NCBI GenBank assembly: GCA_963848635.1
Contig: CAWKEA010000002.1
Location: 13,464 to 77,463 of the forward strand
DNA from: an uncultured bacterium
Lineage (GTDB): Bacteria > Patescibacteriota > Minisyncoccia > Phycocordibacterales > PALSA-1337
Length of the DNA stretch: 64,000 nt
Reading direction: 5' to 3'
A program made the translations under genes and the position numbers. This document shows positions 1,051 to 42,785 of this stretch, in pieces; positions within the stretch are counted from its first letter, which is position 1, and each line of letters opens with the position of its first letter. Under the pieces are notes generated by a model. It was not told the DNA's origin and made no database searches. It saw only the letters and a list, made by a program, of their open reading frames with translations.

Positions 1051-3561
1051 TTACAAACAAATCATGCTCGCGAGCGAATCGCCTTCACGCAGCTTCATGA
1101 CGCGAACGCCTTGTGTGGCGCGAGACAATGTCGGAATCTCTTTCAAATCGGTGCGAATGACCTGCGAGGCCTTCGACATGACCACGATCTCGATGTCGTC
1201 GTCAGTGACGACTTTGGCGGCCATGAGAGAGCCGGTCTTTGGCGTGACGTTCATAGTCAGGATGCCGGAGCCGCCTCGATTCTGGACTTTGTATTCGGAA
1301 AGCTTTGTCTTCTTGCCATAGCCGTTCGCGCCGAGGACGAAAAGCGCCGGGTTCTTGGCGTCTTTCGAGACGACATCGGCGGAGATGACGTGGTCGGCGG
1401 CGATCTTTTTCTTTGCATCTTCTTCGGCAAGCTTGATCACGCGGACGCCGGCGGCGCTACGGCCCATCTCGCGCACATCTGATTCCTTGAAATGGATCGA
1501 CTGTCCTTCCTGCGTTGCGATGACGATATCATCGTTCTTTGATACGAAATTGACCGAAATGAGCTCATCACCGGCGTCCAATGTGATAGCGATCAAACCC
1601 GAACGTCGAACGTCTTTGAAATTTGAGGCGGACGTCTTCTTGCCCGTGCCGTTCTTGGTCACCATGATGAGCGACAGACCATCGGCCGCTTTCTTGTCCT
1701 TTGGCATAGGTAGGATAGAAGTGACCTTTTCGCCGTCAGAGAGCGACAGGAAGTTCATGATCGACTTGCCTTTTGTGGCGCGCTTGCCTTCAGGAATATC
1801 ATACATCTTGATCTGATATGCCTTACCCATATCAGTAAAGAAAAGCAGATCGTTGTGCGTCGTGCCGGTGACGAGGTGCGTGATGAAATCCTCCTCTTTT
1901 GTGTCGAGGTCGACGACGCCGACGCCGCCGCGCTTTTGCTTGCGATATTCGTCAGGATTCGTCCTCTTTATATAGCCGCCTTTTGTCAGAACGAGAACGG
2001 ACTCCTCGTCCGGTATGAGGTCCTCGGCGTTGAATGCTTTGACGCCGTGCTTGATTATCTTTGTCCTCCTCGGATTGTCGTATTTGGCCTTGATCTCGTT
2101 GAGCTCGTCCTTTATGATGCCGCGCACTTTTTTCTCACTGCTCAATATCTCCTTCAATTTGCCGATAATCTCCTGGATTTCCTTCAATTCATCCAAAATC
2201 TTCTTCCTCTCGAGACCAGCCAGCTTTTGCAAGCGCATGTCCAAAATCGCCTGCGCCTGGAGGTCGCTGAATTTGAACTTCTTCATGAGGCCTGCCTTTG
2301 CGTCGGCGACGTCACTCGATGCGCGGATGAGCGTGATGATCTCGTCGATATGGTCGAGAGCTTTTTTCAAGCCGAGCAAGATGTGCTCGCGCGCCTCGGC
2401 TGTGTCGAGGTCGAATTTCGTCCTGCGGCGGATGACTTCTATCCTGTGGACGATGAATTCTTCGAGGATCGTCTTGAGCGAAAGCGTCTGCGGCACGCCG
2501 TGAACGAGAGCGACGGTGTTTATATGGAAAGTATCCTCGAGCTGGGTGTGTTTGTACAAGAAATTCAAGACTTTTTCAGGATAGGCGCCCTGCTTGAGAT
2601 CGATGACGATGCGAAGGTCCTTGTCTGATTCGTCGCGCAAGCCGCGTATGCCGTCGATCGATTTGTCTCGCACAAGATCAGCGATCTTGACGATAAGATC
2701 GCTCTTGTTCACGCGAAATGGGATCGAGGTGATGATGATCTGAAACTGGCCTTTCTTGTCCTCGATTATCTCTGCCTCGCCGCGGACGACGATGCCGCCC
2801 CTGCCGGTCGAGTATGCATGCCTGATATCGTTTTCGCCATACATTATAGCGCCCGTCGGGAAATCGGGGCCTTTGATGAATTGCATAAGGTCGTCGGTCG
2901 TGGCGTCCTTGTTCTCGATCAGATGCGTCGTAGCATCGACGACTTCGCCCAGATTGTGCGGAGCGATGTTCGTGGCCATACCGACAGCGATGCCGAGCGT
3001 GCCGTTCAAGAGCAGGTTCGGGACAGCGGCCGGCAGTACTGTCGGCTCCTTGCGCGTGCCGTCATAGTTCGGACGAAAATCGACGGTGTTCTTCTCGATA
3101 TCGCGAAGAAGCTCTGACGAGATGCGCGACATCTTTGCCTCGGTGTAACGCATGGCTGCAGCTGGGTCGCCGTCGATGTTGCCAAAGTTTCCTTGGCCTT
3201 GGACAAGCGGAGAGCGCATGCGGAAATCCTGCGCCATGCCGACGAGCGTGTCGTACACGGCGACGTCGCCATGCGGGTGATAGTTTCCGAGCACGTCACC
3301 GACGACGACAGCCGACTTGCGGAATTTCGCGGTCGATGTCAGGCCTTTTTCGTGCATGGCGTAGAGGATGCGGCGGTGCACCGGTTTCAATCCGTCGCGC
3401 ACGTCCGGCAGAGCGCGAGCTGTGATGACCGACATGGCATAGTCGAGATACGACGTGCGCATCTCGGTCGTGATAGGAGCATCGATGAGGCCCAAGGCAG
3501 GGTCGCGCGGGACTTCGGCAGCAGCATCCGTATCTCTGTTTTTGTCGCTCTTTTTTGGCAT
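1051..3561 (-). CDS. gyrA: DNA gyrase subunit A
   Basis: 836-aa ORF with a canonical GyrA N-terminus ([38 protein letters not shown]), an active-site region and a C-terminal beta-pinwheel repeat region. Confidence 0.95.
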
Positions 3562-31917: not shown

Positions 31918-33119
31918 GATTTTTTGTTTTAATAGAGCAACTCACACAAGGGCAACTAGAACTTAAGTTTTAATAATTCTCGAGGAATATTTTGATATAA
32001 TTTGCACATGAAAAAAAGAAACAAAAAAGACTCACAAATTGTGACCGTCATGAGATTCATATATTAATCAGAAAGGGATATACTCAAAGTGAGATTGCTG
32101 ACAGAATTGGAGTAACACAAGGTGCGATCTCATATGAAATCAATCAGAAGACAAGAGATGATCGTTTGTACGATTCAGAATACTCAAGACACGTCACATA
32201 CGTTCGTAAGCATCACAAACGTACTCGTGGCAATACGATTGCAGAACACCCAGATCTTCGAAAGACAGTAACCGAATATCTAATGGACGACCAATCACCA
32301 GAACTGCTCTCTGGAAGGCTTAGAAAGCTTCATGCAGATATTCCATACGTATCAGGCAGAACGATCCGTAAATTCATCAAAAGTCCATATGGAAGAAGAA
32401 TCGAAGCAAAGAGAAACAAAATCCACAGAAGAAGAGGTAAAAGAAGGTTGAAATTTGAAATCACTAACAAACGTATGATCGACAAAAGACCAAAGTATAT
32501 CAAGGACAGAAAGAGAATCGGTGATACCGAGGGTGACTTCATTGCTTCAGGTAAAACTGGTCTGGGTATGCTTCTAGTTGTAACTGACAGAAAGAGTCGT
32601 GCACCATTCCTTGAGAAGATATGTCCTGTATCAATCAGGACGATGGAAAATGGTTTCAGAAGAATCAAAAGACGTTTTCCTGAGTTAAAAACAGTAACTC
32701 TCGACAATGATATCTTGTTCATCCACCACAAAGAGCTCGAGAGGAAATTCCATATCAAAATCTACTTCTGTCACAAGCACTCACCTTGGGAAAAACCACT
32801 AGTGGAGAACAGAAACAAACTGATTAGAAGATACATTCCTAAAGGATCTGACATTTCAAGATATACACGCTATTACATTCAAAAATTGGAAGCAAAATTG
32901 CAGAGACGCATCATGAAATGTTTAGACTACAAATTACCCAAGGAAATACTCGAAGAACATCGTAAACGAAAAAAGAAGCCCTAATCGCTTCCTTTCTGTT
33001 AGATTTTCCTTCTTAGAAAAATATTAAAACGTGGGGTGTGGGTGCCAAGATACTCTATTTTTATTATATACAATATATAGTATTTAGTCAAATTTTATAT
33101 TTTTAACAAAAGAAATCGA
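31918..33119 (+). mobile_element. IS30-family insertion sequence (about 1.2 kb) with imperfect terminal inverted repeats (CGATTTTTTGTTTTAATAG / CGATTTCTTTTGTTAAAAAT)
   Basis: Contains an IS30 DDE transposase. The candidate TIRs lie at 31918-31937 and 33099-33119. The boundaries are approximate. Confidence 0.6.
31996..32984 (+). CDS. IS30-family DDE transposase, with an N-terminal frameshift in an A-run at about 32010-32020
   Basis: An HTH (LIRKGYTQSEIADRIGVTQGAISYEIN) and a DDE domain (GDTEGDF ... LDND ... HSPWEKPLVENRNKLIRRYIPKGSDIS). MKKRNKK at 31996 is in the +1 frame relative to the rest. Confidence 0.75.
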
Positions 33120-34187: not shown

Positions 34188-34205
34188 ATTGTACCAAAAT
34201 TACGA

Positions 34206-34239
34206 GCTGGCCGTCTGGGACAATATCCGAACGGATTTA
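34206..34239. repeat. Intergenic repeat copy R2, 15-25 bp upstream of the start of gene 33201-34187 with a TGgTACAAT extended -10-like box in between
   Basis: GCTGGCCGTCTGGGACAATATCCGAACGGATTTA. Confidence 0.6.
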
Positions 34240-34275
34240 AGCCATTAATAATGACGTGGATCGAAGTTAAAACCA

Positions 34276-35022
34276 TCAAAGACCGAACAAAAGCTTAACA
34301 CCAAGTACTCCTCCGATGACAGCAAACATTATTTTTATAAATTTATTGCCTTTATATTTACCATATCGAGAACCCAAGTATCCGCCTAGAACTGACCCGA
34401 TGACAGTTGGAATCATCACCACCCAACTAAAGTAGCCTTTTGAAAGAAATATAACCACAGCAAATATTTCCCAAATAAAAGCAATGGAGTAGTAATAGCC
34501 TAGGGCATCGATAAAGTCGAATCCTTTTGTTTGAAAGGTTACGATCGAAAATAATATGCCATTACCTGAGCCGAAAAAACTTTCGTAGAATCCGAGAACT
34601 AACGCGAATATATATGAGACTGACTGTCTGAATTTTGAATATACCTTTTTCTCGACTATTCCGACATCCCTTTTAATAAGAACGTAAGCGACCAAACACA
34701 ATATCAGTATACCAATGATTACTCCTGCAACTCTTTGATGTATCGCAAATACAACAAGAGTTCCGATATATACGCCGACAAGCCCGATCATGCCAAACAA
34801 GATGAGAAATCTCCAATCAACTTTTCTGCCTTTAAGGTAATTACGAGATGCTGGCAAAACCCAGAACATAGAGCTTACTTTTTGAGCGGCGGTTGCAAGA
34901 GGAAATGAGATGCCAAGAGCCAGCATCACAGGAATGTTTATCACTGATGCCCCACCACCAGACATGGAGCTTAATGCTGTAGCAATAAATGAAGTAACGA
35001 GGATAATGATAAAATTCAACAT
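34276..35022 (-). CDS. Sulfite exporter TauE/SafE family membrane protein
   Basis: An 8-TM duplicated-4TM architecture with GGG..S and GxGGG motifs typical of TauE/SafE. Confidence 0.75.
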   Translation of the reverse strand: MLNFIIILVTSFIATALSSMSGGGASVINIPVMLALGISFPLATAAQKVSSMFWVLPASRNYLKGRKVDWRFLILFGMIGLVGVYIGTLVVFAIHQRVAGVIIGILILCLVAYVLIKRDVGIVEKKVYSKFRQSVSYIFALVLGFYESFFGSGNGILFSIVTFQTKGFDFIDALGYYYSIAFIWEIFAVVIFLSKGYFSWVVMIPTVIGSVLGGYLGSRYGKYKGNKFIKIMFAVIGGVLGVKLLFGL

Positions 35023-35040
35023 AAATGAATTATAGCAAAA

Positions 35041-35712
35041 TTACGTGCTGGCCGGATGGGACAGTATCCGAACAGTTTTACGCCCATTTATCATATGATA
35101 TGATGTTAGAATGAATATTCTAACGAAGGATGTCAAATTTCTTACGAAATCTGTCGATGACCTACAAAAGGATAATTGGCTTCTGATACAAAAAGACCAA
35201 AGCTTCGATCTTAAATCAAAAGACGGTTTACTCGGCACGATGTTTATTAAAAAAGAAGGCGGTTCGACCATTTCGAAACCACGCACAACCTCGTGCAACG
35301 ATTTAAACTTATTTCTATTGAGACTATGTCCGCCGGTGTTTTCTTGAGCAAGGTACATTTTAATTCTTTTATCTTTGTCAGAGACGCCTTTGTTAATAAG
35401 GGTTAGATTAGTCAATTTGTTTAGATCTTTGTGATATTCTAATCTCTTAAAATTTTCTTTGACCGGCTCAAAGGCATATACTTTGCCTCTCTTTGCCATA
35501 CTTGCGGCATACGCAGAGAACACCCCGACCTGTGCACCGATATCTATAATGACATCGTTTTCTTTCAGGGAAAAATCTTGTTCCTTATTTATTTTAGGAA
35601 AGTAGTTTTTAGAAAAAAACACTTCATTTAAAATTATTTTTTCCTCAAAGGAACTCAATCTAAAGTTAAGAGTCTTACCTTTTTCGTTTTCTACTTTTAT
35701 TGATTTAAACAT
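35041..35712 (-). CDS. FkbM-family SAM-dependent methyltransferase
   Basis: VIIDIGAQVGVFSAYAA ... KVYAFEP ... LINKGVSDKDKRIKMYL. The C-terminal approximately 40 aa read through repeat R3 and may be an ORF-track extension artefact. Confidence 0.65.
   Translation of the reverse strand: MFKSIKVENEKGKTLNFRLSSFEEKIILNEVFFSKNYFPKINKEQDFSLKENDVIIDIGAQVGVFSAYAASMAKRGKVYAFEPVKENFKRLEYHKDLNKLTNLTLINKGVSDKDKRIKMYLAQENTGGHSLNRNKFKSLHEVVRGFEMVEPPSFLINIVPSKPSFDLRSKLWSFCIRSQLSFCRSSTDFVRNLTSFVRIFILTSYHMINGRKTVRILSHPAST
35047..35080. repeat. Intergenic repeat copy R3 (GCTGGCCGgaTGGGACAgTATCCGAACaGtTTTA), upstream of the TauE gene with a TGcTATAAT box
   Basis: Aligns with R0-R2. Confidence 0.6.
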
Positions 35713-35888
35713 GATGTATATTCTCGATGCATCTTGAGCGACGCTTTGGCTAACCTCCTTGAGCTAGAACCGTGCTCGGCCAAGCCCTGCAAAGCGGTTT
35801 TGATAGATTTCATGATACCACAACGACGCGACTTGAGCGCTTCAAAAAGTGACAAAAGTGACACAGGATGAGGTATAAAAGTTACACG

Positions 35889-36863
35889 CTACTGTCCCAT
35901 TTTCTTGACTTCCGATTTAAGTTTTTCCGCATTGCCATAACCCAATAAACCAAGATATGACTGCACTATTTCCGGCTTACCATGATCCAGTTCCAGTCTT
36001 TTGAACATTCTCTTTTTCGTAACTGTCCTTAGCACGTCATGAACAGGAAAATGTACCCAACCCAAGAAGTCCACTCCTGAAGCAAGTGTCCGAATACTGA
36101 TTTTATTCGGGTGAAGCTCTAATGCTAATTTTTCATGTAGGAAATTTCCAACCTTGACCAAGATCTGTTCTAGCCATGCTTTATCTCTGCTCATGATCAC
36201 GAAATCATCTGCATAGCGGATATAATGTTCCGCCTTTAGATCGTGCTTCATGAACTGGTCGAACTCATTCATATAGACGTTAACCAAGAGTTGCGAGGTT
36301 AGATTACCCAATGGCAATCCTTTGCCTATTGCAGTACTGCTAAAACTGTCAGTCACTCGCCTGATAAGATCAATAACGTCGACATCAGTAATGTATTTTT
36401 TCAGGATTTCTGAAAGAATTTTTTGGCCTATAGAGGCAAAGAATTTCCGTACATCGCATTTCAGGATCCACAATGTCTTAGTATTGTTTTTACTCGCAAT
36501 ATTGGCAAACTCCCTAAAGCGCTTTAACGCACGATGGGTGCCGCGCAATTTTCTACAGGAATATGAATCGTGAATAAAATGAATGTCGAAAAGCGGATAG
36601 AGCTTTCGATAGAGGGCATGGTGAAGAAGCCTGTCGCGCACGGTCGCTTTGTGGATATTCCTCGGCTTCGGGTCGGAAATATTGAAAGCATGATATCCAC
36701 CGTGAGCATAGGTTTTATTTTTGAGATCGGAATGCAGAGCAAAGATGTTGTCAGAAAGCTTGTACTGGAATTCCTGCACGTCTTTCTTGCCTCGTTTTCC
36801 TTTTAGAAATTCTTTCCAAGCTTCAAGCAAATTTTCTAAAGAAATGATATGGTTGTACATCAT
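35889..36863 (-). CDS. Diversity-generating retroelement (DGR) reverse transcriptase
   Basis: RT motifs 1-7 with YADDFVI, plus the DGR-characteristic motif 4 GLPLGNLTSQLLVNVYMNEFD (SQ in place of SP). About 325 aa with no maturase or endonuclease domain. The ORF extends to 36941 across a (CT)n run; the likely start is MMYNH at 36863. Confidence 0.8.
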   Translation of the reverse strand: MMYNHIISLENLLEAWKEFLKGKRGKKDVQEFQYKLSDNIFALHSDLKNKTYAHGGYHAFNISDPKPRNIHKATVRDRLLHHALYRKLYPLFDIHFIHDSYSCRKLRGTHRALKRFREFANIASKNNTKTLWILKCDVRKFFASIGQKILSEILKKYITDVDVIDLIRRVTDSFSSTAIGKGLPLGNLTSQLLVNVYMNEFDQFMKHDLKAEHYIRYADDFVIMSRDKAWLEQILVKVGNFLHEKLALELHPNKISIRTLASGVDFLGWVHFPVHDVLRTVTKKRMFKRLELDHGKPEIVQSYLGLLGYGNAEKLKSEVKKMGQ

Positions 36864-36898
36864 GAATAATTTAAAAACAGAAATAACCGTGGAGCGGA

Positions 36899-37324
36899 AT
36901 GATGGAGAAAAGAGAGAGAGAGAGAGAGAGAGGAAAAACACAGCCGATTAGACTGATTCCCGTCGTACTGAAGTTAAAGGACGCCTACAATATCTGGCAA
37001 AACTACCTTTCAAGTTTTCCGAAAGCTAACCGCTATACGATCGGGTCAAAGATAGACATCCTCTTTCTTGAAGCAATTGAATACGCCTTTCAGGCGAGCT
37101 ATACCCATACTGAGGAAAAGCGGTTGTTGTTGAACAAGAGCATATCCAAAGTTGACCTCGTTAAATTACTCCTGCAACTGTCATGGGAAATCAAAGCTAT
37201 GGACAACAAGAAATACGCTCACTTGGCTGAACGCTTTGCTGAGATTGGTAAGATGCTGGGCGGTTGGAAACGACAGCTTCAAAACAAAACTCCTCCGACG
37301 GAATCAGAGGAGAAACAGCAATAG
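36899..37324 (+). CDS. avd: Avd-like accessory variability determinant (four-helix-bundle / 23S-rRNA-IVS protein family), divergent from the RT
   Basis: 141 aa. The C-terminal half, LVKLLLQLSWEIKAMDNKKYAHLAERFAEIGKMLGGWKR, matches the IVS/Avd helical pattern. The N-terminus carries a poly(ER) stretch from a (GA)9 repeat. Confidence 0.6.
   Translation: MMEKRERERERGKTQPIRLIPVVLKLKDAYNIWQNYLSSFPKANRYTIGSKIDILFLEAIEYAFQASYTHTEEKRLLLNKSISKVDLVKLLLQLSWEIKAMDNKKYAHLAERFAEIGKMLGGWKRQLQNKTPPTESEEKQQ
36911..36930. repeat. (GA)9-10 dinucleotide microsatellite at the divergent RT/avd start region
   Basis: gagagagagagagagagag, seen directly. Confidence 0.8.
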
Positions 37325-37326
37325 TG

Positions 37327-37455
37327 GCGAACACCGAGGAAACGGTAGTTGGCATTCCAGTCATTGTCCCACCAATTGAGGTTCAGGTTGCGCTTGGAAT
37401 CGTTCCTGTTGAGGTACGGAACGTTGCGGTTGCCGTTGACCTTGCCAACGGAGCC
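37327..37455 (-). repeat. DGR template repeat (TR), 129 bp
   Basis: Aligns base-for-base with VR at 37822-37950. All 24 mismatches are positions where TR carries A on the minus strand (T on the plus strand). The TR reading frame is rich in AAC/AAT (Asn) codons. Confidence 0.8.
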
Positions 37456-37800
37456 TTGTGTGAGAAGCCACCCATGCCACTGCCCGCCGATAGCTTCGCG
37501 CAGGCTGTATCGAATCCGTGATCTCATTCACCGATATCATTTACCGGTTGAACATCACTTAGCTTCTCACACCAACTGTCTCTGATTTTTTGGAGAACAC
37601 CCTGCGGCACCCTTCGAAAAGCCATGGCCGTTCAAACTCTCGTCGCAGGGGTTGCGGACAAATTACCTAAAGCCTTGACCTTAGATCTTTCACTTGTCTC
37701 CGACATTATACATTAAAAACTGACATGCAGAAACGGCGTGTGAATTTCTTCACACGCCGTGGACCAAGAGCCCAAGATTCCAAGGGACAAACCCGAGGGA

Positions 37801-38496
37801 TCAAGAAACCAAGGTCTGAGAGACCTTTTTGCGAACACCGAGGAAACGGCAGCAGGCACGCCAGCCAAAGCCCCACCAATAGAGGCGCAGGCCGCGCTCG
37901 GAACCGTCCCCGTCGAGGAACGGAACGTAGCGGTCGCCGTCGACCTCGCCAACGGAGCCCAGACCGACGATCGGGAATTTCCGCTGCTCTTCGGGGTAAT
38001 TGGCCCCAAAGGAGAGGACGTGCTCGATCTTGCCGACTTCGTAACCGGCTTCTTCGATCTGCTTCTTGGCATCCTCGGACGAAATGTCCTTGTCGAAGTG
38101 GAACAGGACGGCTTCGAATTCAACCGTGCCTTTTCCTTCGATCGGGAACCGCTTGGCGGTGATGTCGTCGTTCTTCCAGTCGTAGCGACCGGCGGCGATC
38201 ATCTGCTCGAGCGTCTGACCGTAGTCAACGATGAGCACGATCGGTTCGGACGGAAGCGGGCCGAGGCCGAGAGCCTGCCGGACGGCGAAGCGATTGGTGA
38301 GCGTTGCCTTTTCTTCAAAGACGTCGCTCAGGATTCCGCTGCCGAGAACTGTCTGGAAACGTTCGGGCGTCATGCCCTTCTGTTCCATAAGTTCGATGAG
38401 TTTCTTCGACTGCGCTGATGTATGTGTATTCATGTGGAATATCTCCAGTATGAATGCTGTCTCTTTCGAGGAGCATGTTGTTTTTGTTTCGGACAT
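37801..38496 (-). CDS. DGR target (variable) protein; the C-terminal approximately 43 codons are encoded by VR, a likely C-type-lectin/FGE-like variable fold
   Basis: VR lies 19 bp upstream of the stop. The C-terminus is GEVDGDRYVPFLDGDGSERGLRLYWWGFGWRACCRFLGVRKK, whereas the TR-encoded version is N-rich (NRNVPYLNRNDSKRNLNLNWWDNDWNANYRFLG). The possible true start is M at 38433. Confidence 0.75.
   Translation of the reverse strand: MSETKTTCSSKETAFILEIFHMNTHTSAQSKKLIELMEQKGMTPERFQTVLGSGILSDVFEEKATLTNRFAVRQALGLGPLPSEPIVLIVDYGQTLEQMIAAGRYDWKNDDITAKRFPIEGKGTVEFEAVLFHFDKDISSEDAKKQIEEAGYEVGKIEHVLSFGANYPEEQRKFPIVGLGSVGEVDGDRYVPFLDGDGSERGLRLYWWGFGWRACCRFLGVRKKVSQTLVS
37822..37950 (-). repeat. DGR variable repeat (VR), 129 bp
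   Basis: See TR. 105 of 129 identical, and the differences are confined to TR-adenine positions. The shared 3' segment CCGTTTCCTCGGTGTTCGC (minus sense) is followed by divergent sequence, so it is a candidate IMH. Confidence 0.8.
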
Positions 38497-38684
38497 GCTA
38501 GAGGGCTACCTTATCGCCATAGCGGAGAATGGCCCACTCTGGTGAGCCGCTTTCTGCTATGGCGATGTTCGCAAATAGGTTGGAAATGAGCTGTCGTTTA
38601 TCTGTATGTATTATATCATATACACTATATATGTCAATATATATTACCCCACGAGTGCCTCTTGACACTCGTGCTATCTCGTGT

Positions 38685-38758
38685 TGGCTACGGGACTAGG
38701 ATTCGAACCTAGATACACGGATTCAGAGTCCGTGGTCCTACCATTAGACGATCCCGTA
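38685..38758 (-). tRNA. tRNA-Gln (anticodon CUG), CCA encoded
   Basis: A hand-folded cloverleaf: acceptor TACGGGA/TCCCGTA, D-stem GTCT/GGAC, anticodon stem ACGGA/TCCGT with loop CTCTGAA, and T-arm CTAGG-TTCGAAT-CCTAG, ending G-CCA. Confidence 0.75.
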
Positions 38759-38768
38759 AAGAAGACAA

Positions 38769-39152
38769 ATGCCTTTCGGCAAGTTGCAGAATAGCGCAAA
38801 AAAGGCTATAAAACAAGCAGAAGAAAGGAAAATAAATATGAACATTATGGCAAAAGAAACCGAACCCCGCACAAATAGCATGCTTGATGACTTGGTCGAC
38901 TTGAGCAGAAGAGGAAAGCTTTGGATGGCGGGATGCAATCCAGGCCACGAATGCGACAAGCAGCCGATAAGCGGCAAAGGATTAGCTGTGGTCAAAGCGC
39001 TCGTCGGCTTGTGTCTGAAACACGGTGTGGCGCCTTTCTGTTGTGTGAGCGGTCAAGACGGATCGTGCACGACCGATGGTATAATTTCGCTCAGTCCGGC
39101 GGAATGCGATGATCTCGTGGAAAAGGCCGCCCCCTTCATTGCGCGAAACTGA
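38769..39152 (+). CDS. Hypothetical small Cys-rich protein
   Basis: 127-aa ORF followed by a strong terminator. Confidence 0.4.
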   Translation: MPFGKLQNSAKKAIKQAEERKINMNIMAKETEPRTNSMLDDLVDLSRRGKLWMAGCNPGHECDKQPISGKGLAVVKALVGLCLKHGVAPFCCVSGQDGSCTTDGIISLSPAECDDLVEKAAPFIARN

Positions 39153-39164
39153 CGACGAACTGAA

Positions 39165-39207
39165 AAGCAGAATCCCGCTCTCGAGCAACCGCGAGCGGGA
39201 TTTTTTC
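39165..39207. terminator. Bidirectional hairpin terminator (ATCCCGCTCTCGAG..CGCGAGCGGGAT + TTTTTTC) between convergent genes
   Basis: A 12-bp stem followed by a T-tract. Confidence 0.55.
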
Positions 39208-39222
39208 TTTGCCTGGTTGTGG

Positions 39223-41035
39223 CTACTTTTCTACGCTAACATGCTTGGCCGATTCAGCAGAATCCTGCTTGGCCGCGGCTTTATCCTTTTCCTTGGCCGC
39301 TTTCATGAATTCAGTGAACAAGGGATGCGGCATGAGAGGTCTGGCGAGGAATTCGGGATGGAATTGTGTGCCGAGGAAGAACGGGTGCACTGCTCGCGGC
39401 AGTTCGGCGATCTCCATGAGAGTGCCATCGGGAGATTTGCCAGAAAACACGAGGCCGCCTTTCTCGAGCCTTTCGATGTATTTCGGATTGACCTCGTACC
39501 GATGGCGGTGGCGCTCCTTGATCATGACAGTCGCCTTGGGCAGTCTCTTTCCCTGAAAATACGAGTACGACTCCTCTGCGATAGTCCCCTTGCCGAGCCT
39601 GGTCGGATAGAGGCCGAGGCGCATCGAGCCGCCGTAATTCTTGTCTTCCATCTTTTTCTTTTGATCCGGCAATATGTCGATAACGGGGTTCTTTGTCGTT
39701 GCGTCTATCTCAGTCGTGTTGGCATCCGAGAGGCCGAGCTTGTGCCGCGCGTATTCGATGGTCAAAAGCTGCATGCCATAGCAGAGGCCGAAATACGGGA
39801 TCTTGTGCTCGCGGGCATAGCGGATGACATTGAGCTTGCCTTCTATGCCGGTCGAGCCAAAGCCGCCTGGCACGATGATGCCGTCGAAAGTGTTGAGATT
39901 GGAATAATCGATGATGACTGCGTTTTCCTTTCTTGCCCTCTTCTTCGAAATCCGTCGCATTGATCGCCTCGATGACCGCCTTGACTCCTACTGACCGGGC
40001 GGAAAATTTTATAGCTTCAAGCACCGAGAGATATGCATCCGTCAGGACAAAGTCGCCTGTGGAGAAATATTTGCCGACTATGGCTATCCTGACCGGCCGG
40101 TCGTCATGATCTTTTATCTCCTTGGCCATTTTCTTCCATTCGTTCAAATCGACAAAGCCGGCTGTGTTCGCATTTTTTTTGCTGTTAGTCTTTTTTTCGA
40201 GCTTCAACGAATCAAAGATTATCTGGCCAAGCCCTCCATGATCAAAATTGACCGGTACGTCATAGATGCTCTCGATATCCGGAGCCGATAGGACATGATC
40301 AGGGAATATATTGCATGCGATAGCGATCTTCTCCTTGCGGCGCTTATCCAGAGGCGATTCGGCGCGAGCGATGATGATATCAGTATTCACTCCGTATGAA
40401 GCCAGCTGATGGGCAGCATGCTGTGTCGGGCGTGTCTTCATCTCGCCGAGATTCGAAGGCACTGGCAAATATGAGACCAATATGAAAAGACAGTCATCGG
40501 GATGGTGAATCTTCAAGAACCGGGCGGCCTCGATGAACATGATGTTCTGATAATCTCCGACGGTGCCCCCGATCTCGATTATCGAGATATCGGACTTGCT
40601 CGCTTTTGCGGCATGCTCAAAGCGACGGACGATCTCATCTCGGATATGCGGCACTGCCTCAACGCATTTGCCGCCATAGCCTAAACTGCGCTCGCGGTCG
40701 ATGACAGCTTTGTAGATCATGCCGCTCGTCATATAATCGGCTTCGCTCGCGTCGCGATTGAGGAACCGCTCATAATTGCCCATATCCTGATCGGTCTCAA
40801 GGCCGCTGTTCAGAACAAAGACCTCGCCGTGCTCGGTTGGGTTCATGGTGCCTGCGTCAACATTCAGATATGGGTCAACCTTTACTAGATTGACGGTGAA
40901 TCCTTGAGACGAAAGCAGAGTGCCTATAGAAGAAGTAGCGACGCCCTTGCCGACTCCCGACATCACTCCGCCGATAACGAAGATATATTTATGATGGTTG
41001 GCTGGTCCGTGTGGCTTGGCGGGTCTGTGTTTCAT
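39223..41035 (-). CDS. pyrG: CTP synthase PyrG, split by a single frameshift at about 39955 between the synthetase and glutamine-amidotransferase domains
   Basis: ORF 39710-41035 holds the synthetase domain (KYIFVIGGVMSGVGKG ...). ORF 39223-39960 holds the GATase domain (DGIIVPGGFG ... GLCYGMQ ... HPEF). The junction is in a homopolymer-rich stretch (gaagaagagggcaagaaaggaaaacgc). Confidence 0.85.
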
Positions 41036-41133
41036 GGGCCAATTGTAGTCAAAGGATAAAGCAGTTGCAAGCGGTCAGCGCAAGCGGCAAGTTAATTCGA
41101 AATCGGTCAAATGAGCTCAGAGAGAATTCGCCC

Positions 41134-42088
41134 CTAGACTTTTAGATATCGCCTCACGGCCAGATAGCTCGATACAGCGCCGAGGACTATGCCTGTTCCC
41201 ATGATTATGACGAATATTTCCCCGAAGTGGACCAAAAAATATGTAGAGAATATGGAAATAATGGAAGAAAGATCGGAAGCAACCTCGGCACCGGCAAAAT
41301 GGGCAATCAATGCCCCGCTCCAAAAGACGAGTCCCGCGAGAATGATGAGCGTGAGAATGCCGGAAACAATGCCGCACATGATCCCTGAGACTACGAACGG
41401 GCCGCGGACATACGTATTCGACGCGCCCACAAGCCGCATGACGGAGATCTCGTCGCGAGAAGTATAGATGATGAGGCGTACAGTATTGAATATGATGATG
41501 ATAGCGACGATGACGAGCAATAAGTACCAGCGCAAGCCCCGCCTCTTCGACATCAGGTATGAGACGTCCGAGCCTGTCGATGACAGCCTGGTTTTCGCCG
41601 TAATTGACGCTATCGACGATCGGCGTGCCAGAAGCCGTCATAGCCCCAGAACCAGTGAGGAAATCCGATATGCCCGCATATTCGGACGGATCATTGGCCT
41701 TTATTATAAGGGCGGCGGGAAATGGATTAGTGCCGATCTCATTGATGCTCTGCAATATGAGCGAATTGCCCTGCCATTGGCTCTGAAAATTTGCCAAAGC
41801 TTGATCGCTCGATATATACGTCGTCGAAGCGACTTCCGGCAATTTTTCGACTGTCTTTTGCAAGGCGAGGATGTCATCCAGAGCGGCGTCCTGATTGAAA
41901 TAGGCCGTGACGTCGATCTTGTCCTTGACCTCCGCTATCATCGCTCGGCCAAAGACATCGCCGAACATGACGGCACCGAATGAGACGAGGCATAGAGTGA
42001 TGACGACGATTGCCGCGAACGACAAAAAGCCGTTACGCCAGAAATTGACGAAACCTGTTTTCACGATGCGCTTGAGATTTATGAACAT
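41134..42088 (-). CDS. ftsX: Cell-division permease FtsX, split by a frameshift at about 41550
   Basis: ORF 41117-42178 has the N-terminal periplasmic domain, and ORF 41134-41553 has the C-terminal 3-TM permease domain. The gene starts 10 bp downstream of the ftsE stop. Confidence 0.8.
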
Positions 42089-42098
42089 GAGGTTATAT

Positions 42099-42785
42099 TT
42101 ATAGAATATATTTCCCTTTTTTGTCGTCGCGCGTGACTTTTCCCTTTTCCATAGTGATGACGCGGCCGCCGATGGCATCGACGACGCCTTTGTTGTGAGT
42201 GGTCAAGAAAACCGTCGTGCCGATCTCGTTTATCTTTTGGAGGATGCGGATGATGTCGTAGGTATTCTCCGGATCGAGATTGCCGGTAGGCTCGTCGGCT
42301 ACGATGATATCCGGTTGGTTGACGATGGCCCGCGCGATCGCCACACGCTGACGCTCTCCGCCTGAGAGCTGATGGGGAAAATTCCACATTTTGTCGGCGA
42401 GGTCGACGAGCTCGAGCACATGCGGCACGTCCGCCGCCACTTCGTTCGATGTGCGCCCTGCCGCTTCCATGGCAAAAGCGATATTCTCGTAGGCAGTCTT
42501 GTTCGGTATGAGCCGATAGTCTTGGAAAACCATGCCGATGCGCCGTCGATAGCGCGTCATGTCGTGCTTTCTCAGCTTGTGGATATTGGCCGATTCAAAA
42601 AAGACCGTGCCGGACGTCGGGCGATCTTCGGCGATGAGCATCTTCATGAGCGTCGTCTTGCCCGCTCCTGAATGCCCCACGATGGTTATAAATTCTTTCG
42701 GTTCGACGCCAAAGCTGACTTCATCGAGCGCTTTCGATCCGTCTGGGTAGATTTTTGTGACTTTATCGTAGTAGATCATTGGCAT
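42099..42785 (-). CDS. ftsE: Cell-division ATP-binding protein FtsE
   Basis: An ABC ATPase with Walker A GHSGAGKTT, the signature LSGGERQRVAIARA, and Walker B IIVADEPTGNLD. Confidence 0.9.
   Translation of the reverse strand: MPMIYYDKVTKIYPDGSKALDEVSFGVEPKEFITIVGHSGAGKTTLMKMLIAEDRPTSGTVFFESANIHKLRKHDMTRYRRRIGMVFQDYRLIPNKTAYENIAFAMEAAGRTSNEVAADVPHVLELVDLADKMWNFPHQLSGGERQRVAIARAIVNQPDIIVADEPTGNLDPENTYDIIRILQKINEIGTTVFLTTHNKGVVDAIGGRVITMEKGKVTRDDKKGKYIL

Follow-up and report, generated by a model that had tools for sequence, protein, structure and literature searches.

A dinucleotide tract in the avd reading frame and a probable stand-alone template-repeat RNA in a diversity-generating retroelement of Patescibacteria: a possible contingency locus

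Positions 35889-38496 of a 64-kb stretch of DNA from an uncultured patescibacterium (contig CAWKEA010000002.1; the whole stretch is called the window here) contain what is very probably an intact diversity-generating retroelement (DGR) of the type known from Patescibacteria, also called the candidate phyla radiation (CPR), with Architecture B3 and a reverse transcriptase (RT) of clade 2. As a DGR, the element is an ordinary member of a well-described CPR clade that comprises thousands of such elements. The most interesting feature of the locus is a tract of short repeats within the first codons of avd, the gene for the accessory variability determinant. Our reading, which we put forward tentatively and consider possible but a little short of probable, has two parts that are meant jointly: the tract makes avd a contingency locus that reversibly switches Avd, and hence the hypermutation of the target gene, and the template repeat is part of an undescribed stand-alone RNA of about 420 nt.

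The repeat pair of the element was defined by pairwise alignment. The template repeat (TR, 37327-37455) and the variable repeat (VR, 37831-37959), both on the minus strand, form a direct repeat of 129 nt with an offset of 504 nt. Tabulation of the alignment confirmed 24 mismatches, and 24 of 24 were located at TR adenines of the minus strand (T on the plus strand), while 97 of 97 non-adenine positions of TR were unchanged in VR. Given 32 adenines among 129 positions, the hypergeometric probability of such a restriction to adenines by chance is P = 1.4e-19. The likeness between the repeats stops abruptly within 1-2 nt beyond the repeat at both flanks, which rules out a plain duplication; a preliminary description of this DNA had named similarity extending equally into the flanks as the observation that would speak for one. 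The sharp repeat ends together with the adenine-only mismatches thus represent the signature of a DGR and not of a duplication. VR is in frame 0 of the open reading frame (ORF) 37801-38496 on the minus strand, and its changes relative to TR affect codon position 1 (14 changes) or 2 (10 changes), never position 3, with 19 residues being recoded. None of the 32 adenines of TR is at codon position 3, and 11 of its codons are AAC or AAT. The preliminary description had placed TR correctly, but its VR (37822-37950) has to be shifted by 9 nt to higher coordinates, and VR does not form the last 43 codons of the target as had been stated: it corresponds to codons 180-222 of the 231-codon ORF and is followed by nine further codons. 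The final 19 nt of VR (CCGTTTCCTCGGTGTTCGC) are free of adenines and the same in TR, with divergence immediately beyond, and are a candidate for the initiation of mutagenic homing (IMH) sequence. With no difference between the two repeats over these 19 nt, IMH and IMH* are indistinguishable within the repeat. A search with TR in which the adenines were masked, performed with the full length and with 40-nt windows, detected no further VR copies in the 64-kb window.

The RT is encoded on the minus strand at 35889-36863 and consists of 324 aa (MMYNHIISLENLL...). It matched Pfam RVT_1 (1.2e-24), and its translation contains the YADD motif as well as LGNLTSQ, so that both YADD and the DGR-type GNLTSQ motif mentioned in the preliminary description can be read from it. 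The best solved relative was 8ub7_A, a 328-aa 'Reverse transcriptase' that we take to be the bRT of a Bordetella phage, with 149 bits, whereas retron-type and group II RTs scored at most 83 bits. Protein P0001 (NCBI/ENA) is 100% identical to the window RT, and there are thousands of RT relatives from Patescibacteria, hundreds of them with 60-84% identity; their records are labelled Paceibacterota, Patescibacteria and similar. It could be argued that the RT is that of a retron, of a group II intron or of a defence system and that the repeat pair is an ordinary duplication, since the best named NCBIfam match of the RT was a group II intron RT/maturase model and the JGI annotation of RT relatives reads 'retron-type'. 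However, the NCBIfam match reached just 142 bits with a cut-off of 300, the RT has no maturase or endonuclease domain, and an Rfam search over 35000-39500 (E <= 1) returned the tRNA and a chance PK-repBA match only, with no intron and no msr/msd RNA. This explanation, to which we assign a negligible probability, is already refuted by the confinement of the TR/VR similarity to 129 nt, by the restriction of the mismatches to adenines, by the Avd gene adjoining the RT and by the difference in score between 8ub7 and the retron-type and group II RTs.

An Avd-type gene between TR and the RT had been proposed from the letters alone, and the ORF at 36899-37324 on the plus strand, 141 aa from a proximal ATG-ATG, indeed passed the cut-off of Pfam bAvd (48.2 bits, cut-off 40). 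All other DGR components lie on the minus strand. The opposite orientation of avd was therefore a correct observation in the preliminary description, but it is no oddity: Architecture B3 is defined by the order TR-(avd)-RT with a reverse-strand avd and makes up 90% of the CPR DGR set (Wu et al., 2017, PMC5758913). For comparison, 80 genome loci, 74 of which had enough upstream DNA, and 71 metagenome loci were analyzed, and avd was divergent from and on the opposite strand to the RT in 74/74 and 71/71 loci, respectively. Among the loci, L081-L090 and L125-L193 came from the groundwater sets of Rifle and Hainich. TR and VR could be paired in 59 loci by a geometry-anchored, adenine-masked search; in these loci TR ends about 0-24 nt from the avd stop and VR is located 450-590 nt upstream on the same strand. 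Features that were flagged as unusual at first reading are thus normal for the clade. The start codon of the window RT (36863-36861, minus strand) and a distal avd ATG (36862-36864, plus strand), the frame of which is not that of the Avd body in the window allele, share 2 nt within the sequence CATCATG. The divergent starts of RT and avd are likewise arranged back to back in the relatives P0016, P0011, P0026 and L006, with sequences of the CAT(N)ATG type. With starts that overlap or stand back to back, the promoter of each gene must sit inside the other gene. It had been claimed that the two starts flank a microsatellite, but the starts overlap and the tract is located inside avd.

The tract itself is (AG)11 at 36911-36932 on the plus strand, which corrects the (GA)9 at 36911-36930 reported before. 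It forms codons 5-11 of avd counted from the ATG at 36899, encodes (Arg-Glu)n and lies 48 nt upstream of the start of the RT, which is on the other strand. No second repeat of this kind is present in the 64-kb window. When the length of the window tract was varied in a simulation, (AG)11 left avd ON from the proximal ATG, (AG)9 and (AG)12 left it ON from the distal ATG, and (AG)10 and (AG)13 were OFF. The relatives carry tracts at the same site of avd, namely (AG)n of 14-35 nt in the window clade and perfect C7-C13 runs in most others. In 74 relatives, 61 simple sequence repeat (SSR) tracts were found in the 280-nt zones at the 5′ end of avd versus 4 in the remaining approximately 673 kb. A third kind of repeat was observed at this site in four relatives (L048, L064, L073 and L074), which contain three in-frame 12-nt units encoding TNER, TNQP or ASQP that are incapable of shifting the frame. 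Three loci with an RT 84% identical to that of the window (L118-L120) have poly-C where the window has (AG)11, so that the type of repeat at the avd site has been exchanged recently. In two of these three contigs the sequence ends exactly in the tract, which hints at breaks made by assemblers at this site.

Variation of tract length was analyzed for RT proteins that are present on several independent contigs. For P0016, with an RT 79% identical to that of the window and represented by 10 contigs, a tract of 18 nt (1 contig) leaves Avd intact with 149 aa, whereas tracts of 20 nt (8 contigs) and 22 nt (1 contig) lead to a stop after 22 and 28 aa, respectively. The flanks of the P0016 tract show 0 differences over 53 nt before and 420 nt after it. 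For P0007, Avd is truncated (OFF) with tracts of 18 nt (3 contigs) and 24 nt (3 contigs) and intact (ON) with 146 aa when the tract has 26 nt (1 contig). For P0005, the 5′ region of which is identical to that of the window, a tract of 25 nt permits the synthesis of 139/140 aa from the proximal ATGs and a tract of 27 nt that of 153 aa from the distal ATG. The flanks of the P0007 and P0005 alleles are identical as well. Overall, AG alleles that are 2 nt apart truncate Avd at 17-28 aa. P0016 contigs with the same TR and flanks additionally contain two VR alleles with 23 differing columns, 23 of 23 being TR adenines, which indicates that this DGR family is active in nature. Three tract lengths were found within one VR allele of P0016; in this lineage the (AG)n tract thus turns over no more slowly than VR. 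From these sequence comparisons we consider it possible, while withholding the word probable, that the tract sets the reading frame of avd as a functional regulator of the DGR, and our confidence is held down because poly-C tracts provide indirect evidence and because slippage in the course of expression is a serious alternative. Two other roles of the tract were rejected. As poly-G on the other strand it could be a Shine-Dalgarno sequence of the RT, but it ends about 13 nt from the ATG, a separate AGGAG-like motif is located nearer, and the (UC)n of the window cannot be a Shine-Dalgarno sequence. A programmed frameshift of fixed direction is incompatible with the occurrence of both +1 and +2 offsets among the relatives.

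The second part of our reading concerns the RNA that contains TR. A terminator scan of the minus strand identified a hairpin with a 10-bp stem at 37280-37312 (CUCCUCUGAU-UCC-GUCGGAGGAG followed by UUUUGUUUUG), which begins 15 nt 3′ of TR and is antisense to the last avd codons. Its composition of a GC-rich stem-loop and a run of U immediately following on the transcribed strand fits the pattern of a Rho-independent terminator, as far as can be judged from sequence. Almost all relatives have an equivalent hairpin after TR, in which the base of the stem is kept, the inner pairs covary and the tail reads GUUUU (GAGUUUU in most). Covariation amounted to 69 doubly-changed cells versus 20 ± 6.6 after shuffling, with 0 of 500 shuffles as high, and the covariation score was 0.52 versus at most 0.22 for slid controls. 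The conservation of this terminator-like hairpin makes it probable that the TR RNA is a transcript of its own. A candidate promoter is the extended −10 box TGTATAAT at 37705-37712 on the minus strand, which was read from the sequence; the promoter scan did not call it because a good −35 box is absent. Among the 59 relatives with paired repeats, at least 31 have a TA[TAC]AAT hexamer 220-260 nt upstream of TR.

For the stretch that separates the −10 box from TR, RNAalifold predicted a structured 5′ domain of approximately 235-240 nt (37456-37698, minus strand) from an alignment of 27 relatives. The domain consists of helices P1 (37682-37677/37674-37667), P2 (37644-37642/37608-37606), P3 (37636-37628/37621-37613), P5 (37557-37554/37522-37519) and P6 (37505-37503/37484-37482) and of the long-range helix P4 (37572-37561/37469-37458), which has 12 bp and closes 3 nt before TR, all on the minus strand. 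Compensatory changes were observed in 32 of the 38 pairs, and 97.2% of the cells were paired, compared with 40-48% when the partners were slid. The covariation score was 0.79 versus about 0.14 in the control, and 0 of 500 shuffles were as high. G-U pairs are frequent, indicating that the structure is specific to the TR-sense strand. The domain had no match in Rfam. We infer that the TR RNA is a stand-alone molecule of about 420 nt and that its 5′ domain may serve as a binding scaffold for RT and Avd. The covarying terminator-like hairpin 15 nt after TR and the upstream −10 box weaken the earlier idea that a joint TR-RT transcript crosses antisense avd.

Taken together, the locus could operate as follows. 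The target gene (37801-38433) would be transcribed from a consensus promoter, and the extended −10 box about 90 nt past the target stop would start the separate RNA of about 420 nt, composed of the 240-nt structured 5′ domain, the 129-nt TR and the hairpin with its U-run. This hairpin probably stops most of the transcription short of avd, which would otherwise be crossed antisense. The RT and Avd would then copy the TR RNA into cDNA with unfaithful reading of the template adenines, and replacement of VR by the cDNA would recode up to 21 codons. The avd gene would be expressed from the opposite strand, with a start that overlaps the start of the RT, and slippage in (AG)11 by one unit would put the Avd body either out of frame or in frame with the second upstream ATG. 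In this way, the supply of Avd and hence mutagenesis could switch heritably yet reversibly. The positions of the transcript ends, the mode of RT transcription and the regulation of DGR activity by tract changes are the predicted elements of this scheme.

Several observations weigh against a switch in avd or against the scheme as a whole. The poly-C tracts showed no variation within lineages (four lineages, 15 contigs; two P0002 contigs end inside the tract and are uninformative), so that for poly-C the idea of a switch stands on frame statistics across species alone. Of the 54 genome loci with a tract of either poly-C or AG, 11 have an in-frame avd ATG, as do 18 of the 58 metagenome loci with poly-C, which corresponds to about 20-31%; the Avd body ORF was intact in all these loci irrespective of an in-frame ATG. 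A share of approximately one third would also be expected if the upstream ATGs had no role, or with expression that depends on transcriptional or ribosomal slippage instead of switching in the DNA. The window avd is in frame and there is consequently no 'off' state at this locus; switching of tract length is known from three sister lineages and adenine-restricted VR allelism from the sister lineage P0016. Avd scored 59.9 bits against the NCBIfam model DivGenRetAVD, which is under the cut-off of 80. Efficient termination at the hairpin after TR, combined with the result that the scan found no promoter-like sites between TR and the RT start, would leave the source of the RT mRNA unaccounted for. 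With respect to novelty, our search of the literature on DGRs found no description of a structured RNA and none of a homopolymer, a microsatellite or phase variation, and no mention of the avd tract, the 5′ RNA domain or the post-TR hairpin was found in PMC5758913 or PMC8144416; the article by Paul et al. (2017) on CPR DGRs was outside this search, and the tract or the features of the TR RNA may already be described there.

These points lend some plausibility to the alternative that the tract is not a switch but a tolerated, low-complexity N-terminal tail with drifting length, or, in a variant of the same idea, that it acts on the other strand as poly-G or (UC)n in the 5′ leader of the RT and that 'off' alleles are expressed via transcriptional or ribosomal slippage. 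We consider these two versions together as plausible but rather doubtful. In addition to the constancy of poly-C within the four lineages and the near-random share of in-frame loci, they are favoured by the observations that a homopolymer reads Pro-Pro-Pro in all three frames, which makes re-pairing free of cost, that some relatives have in-frame 12-nt repeats at the same site that cannot shift the frame, and that the tract is about 13 nt from the RT start at many loci. However, poly-C, AG and 12-mers occupy one and the same position, and as RNA motifs none is the equivalent of the others on either strand; moreover, a relative as close as 84% RT identity has poly-C in place of AG. The C7-C13 runs are perfect and contain no mixed Pro codons, which indicates selection at the nucleotide level, and AG alleles with a length difference of 2 nt demonstrably truncate Avd. 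Furthermore, an additional ATG in a different frame has arisen in the window clade, which is sensible only if the frame matters. Alternatively, the DGR might be a fossil in which the differences between TR and VR record past activity while diversification has ceased. The evidence for VR heterogeneity comes from outside the window population, the RT-avd module is located in a low-GC stretch near an IS30 element with neighbouring genes that may carry frameshifts, and avd is out of frame in many relatives. We nevertheless regard a fossil as improbable, because every part of the DGR is intact in the window, with open RT and avd ORFs and avd in frame, and because the 32 adenines of TR, which occupy codon positions 1 and 2, have all been kept. 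The non-adenine positions of TR and VR are 100% identical, and such identity decays fast without ongoing homing. The two adenine-restricted VR alleles of P0016 likewise argue against a fossil.

The target of the DGR is a protein of 210 aa when counted from MNTHTSAQ (37801-38433, minus strand), with the ORF being open to 38496 (231 aa). It had no significant profile match in the PDB (best E = 0.1) and no Pfam or NCBIfam family, so that comparison at the level of the fold alone was informative. Its C-terminus modelled as a C-type lectin (CLec) fold, in agreement with the C-type-lectin-like variable region suggested in the preliminary description. The core of the preliminary reading is upheld for each component that could be tested, namely the RT, the avd on the opposite strand, the TR/VR pair with mismatches at adenines only and the small target of C-type lectin fold, which together make up a complete DGR. 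Target features that had been listed as unusual are no oddity, since Roux et al. (2021, PMC8144416) assign CPR DGRs to clade 2 and note that their targets typically have no recognisable domain, transmembrane or other. A sigma-70 consensus promoter (TTGACA-16-TATAAT with an extended TG, 12/12 match) is located upstream of the target at 38610-38637 on the minus strand. Between this promoter and the target start, an inverted repeat with 25-nt arms that are 80% complementary and separated by a 4-nt gap was observed at 38513-38566; it could be an operator or a 5′-UTR (untranslated region) structure controlling the DGR target. The search for a hairpin 3′ of VR that had been recommended earlier yielded two candidates on the minus strand. 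One is a 7-bp hairpin at 37811-37827, which begins 3 nt after VR inside the last target codons. The other is a perfect 12-bp hairpin with a GAAA loop at 37733-37760 (DNA fold, z = −4.0), which follows VR at a distance of about 70 nt on the 3′ side and the target stop codon at 41 nt, and may be either the terminator of the target or a DGR target-site hairpin; its sequence, with a stem of 11-12 bp, is common to L003 and L004 only. A perfect hairpin with a stem of at least 7 bp was present 3′ of VR in just 17 of 59 relatives, a share similar to the 34% of the published set (Wu et al., 2017, PMC5758913), and was therefore rejected as a conserved DGR element.

The surroundings of the element agree with the earlier description of an AT-rich stretch with a tRNA-Gln and an IS30 nearby. 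The GC content between 32000 and 37000 is 0.37-0.41 versus approximately 0.50, the tRNA-Gln is located at 38685-38758 and the IS30 transposase at 32166-32984. Besides RT and avd, the low-GC stretch holds an unknown 328-aa ORF, a TauE exporter and an FkbM-like methyltransferase. With a GC content of 0.41 for the RT and 0.44 for avd versus 0.58 for the target and 0.55 for TR, it may be that the RT-avd module has had another history than the target. A direct repeat of 56 nt with 84% identity is found at 34188-34243 and 35029-35084, immediately upstream of the 328-aa ORF and of the TauE-family ORF, respectively, which are consecutive genes of the minus strand, and it could represent a shared promoter or leader. 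On the other side of the DGR, a CTP-synthase-like gene (39710-41035 and 39223-39960) and an FtsX-like gene (41117-42178 and 41134-41553), both identified by eye and on the minus strand, each appear to be split into overlapping frames, which suggests frameshifts or assembly indels near the DGR. In the P0016 lineage (L081-L087, locus coordinates 3010-3507), the RT is followed by two small ORFs and then, at a distance of about 550 nt on the downstream side, by an RNase H gene (PF00075), and no counterpart was found at the equivalent position of the window.

The DGR of the window itself adds nothing new, and the RT protein is already public; the value of the locus lies in the comparative features that it exposed. 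To our knowledge, the regulation of DGR activity is largely unknown, and CPR bacteria are not genetically manipulable. If it is functional, the repeat in the avd frame would be a new regulatory principle for DGRs, in which one mutational switch gates another mutator. Tract length would then be a proxy for 'DGR on' or 'DGR off' that can be read from the sequence in any metagenome, and the relationship between Avd supply and VR turnover would be open to testing with read data that already exist. Together, the 5′ RNA domain and the post-TR hairpin mark out the RNA that is likely to be functional in the most abundant clade of DGRs, and boundaries of this kind are the information needed for reconstituting a CPR DGR in vitro or for building a covariance model for annotation.

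In comparison with the published CPR DGRs (Architecture B3, PMC5758913; clade 2, PMC8144416), no structural difference was detected in the window element. Gene order and strands are alike, TR abuts the avd stop, VR is located upstream by about 500 nt, at the C-terminus of a small target without a recognisable domain, and a hairpin 3′ of VR occurs in a minority of loci. The avd tract, the covarying 5′ RNA domain and the post-TR hairpin are properties of the whole clade and not peculiarities of the window. The DGR of Bordetella phage BPP-1 (mtd-avd-TR-brt, Architecture B1) shares with the window element the adenine-specific signature, an AAC-rich TR, a CLec variable domain, the pairing of Avd with an RT that is the closest solved relative (8ub7), and a GC-rich hairpin with a 4-nt loop downstream of VR. 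In BPP-1, however, avd is co-directional and located upstream of TR, whereas it is on the opposite strand in the window; the IMH and IMH* of the window, unlike those of BPP-1, do not differ in their last 19 nt, and the window target is no phage tail fibre. The core RNA of the Bordetella DGR consists of 20 nt of avd, TR and a 140-nt 3′ spacer that binds Avd, with priming from A56 (PMC7826257). The RNA of the window seems to be reversed relative to this arrangement, with the large structured domain 5′ of TR and just a short hairpin with a U-run on the 3′ side, and consequently the priming site and the Avd-binding site must be arranged otherwise. With the SSR contingency loci of Neisseria, Haemophilus and Campylobacter, the avd tract has in common that a homopolymer or dinucleotide tract is situated in the first codons of an ORF, that tract length is the sole polymorphism between otherwise identical sequences and that it moves the ORF in and out of frame. 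While those loci switch surface antigens or restriction systems, the tract described here would act on an accessory factor of a targeted hypermutation machine in patescibacterial hosts, and the window clade differs further in having two starts in different frames, by which two of three tract states are productive.

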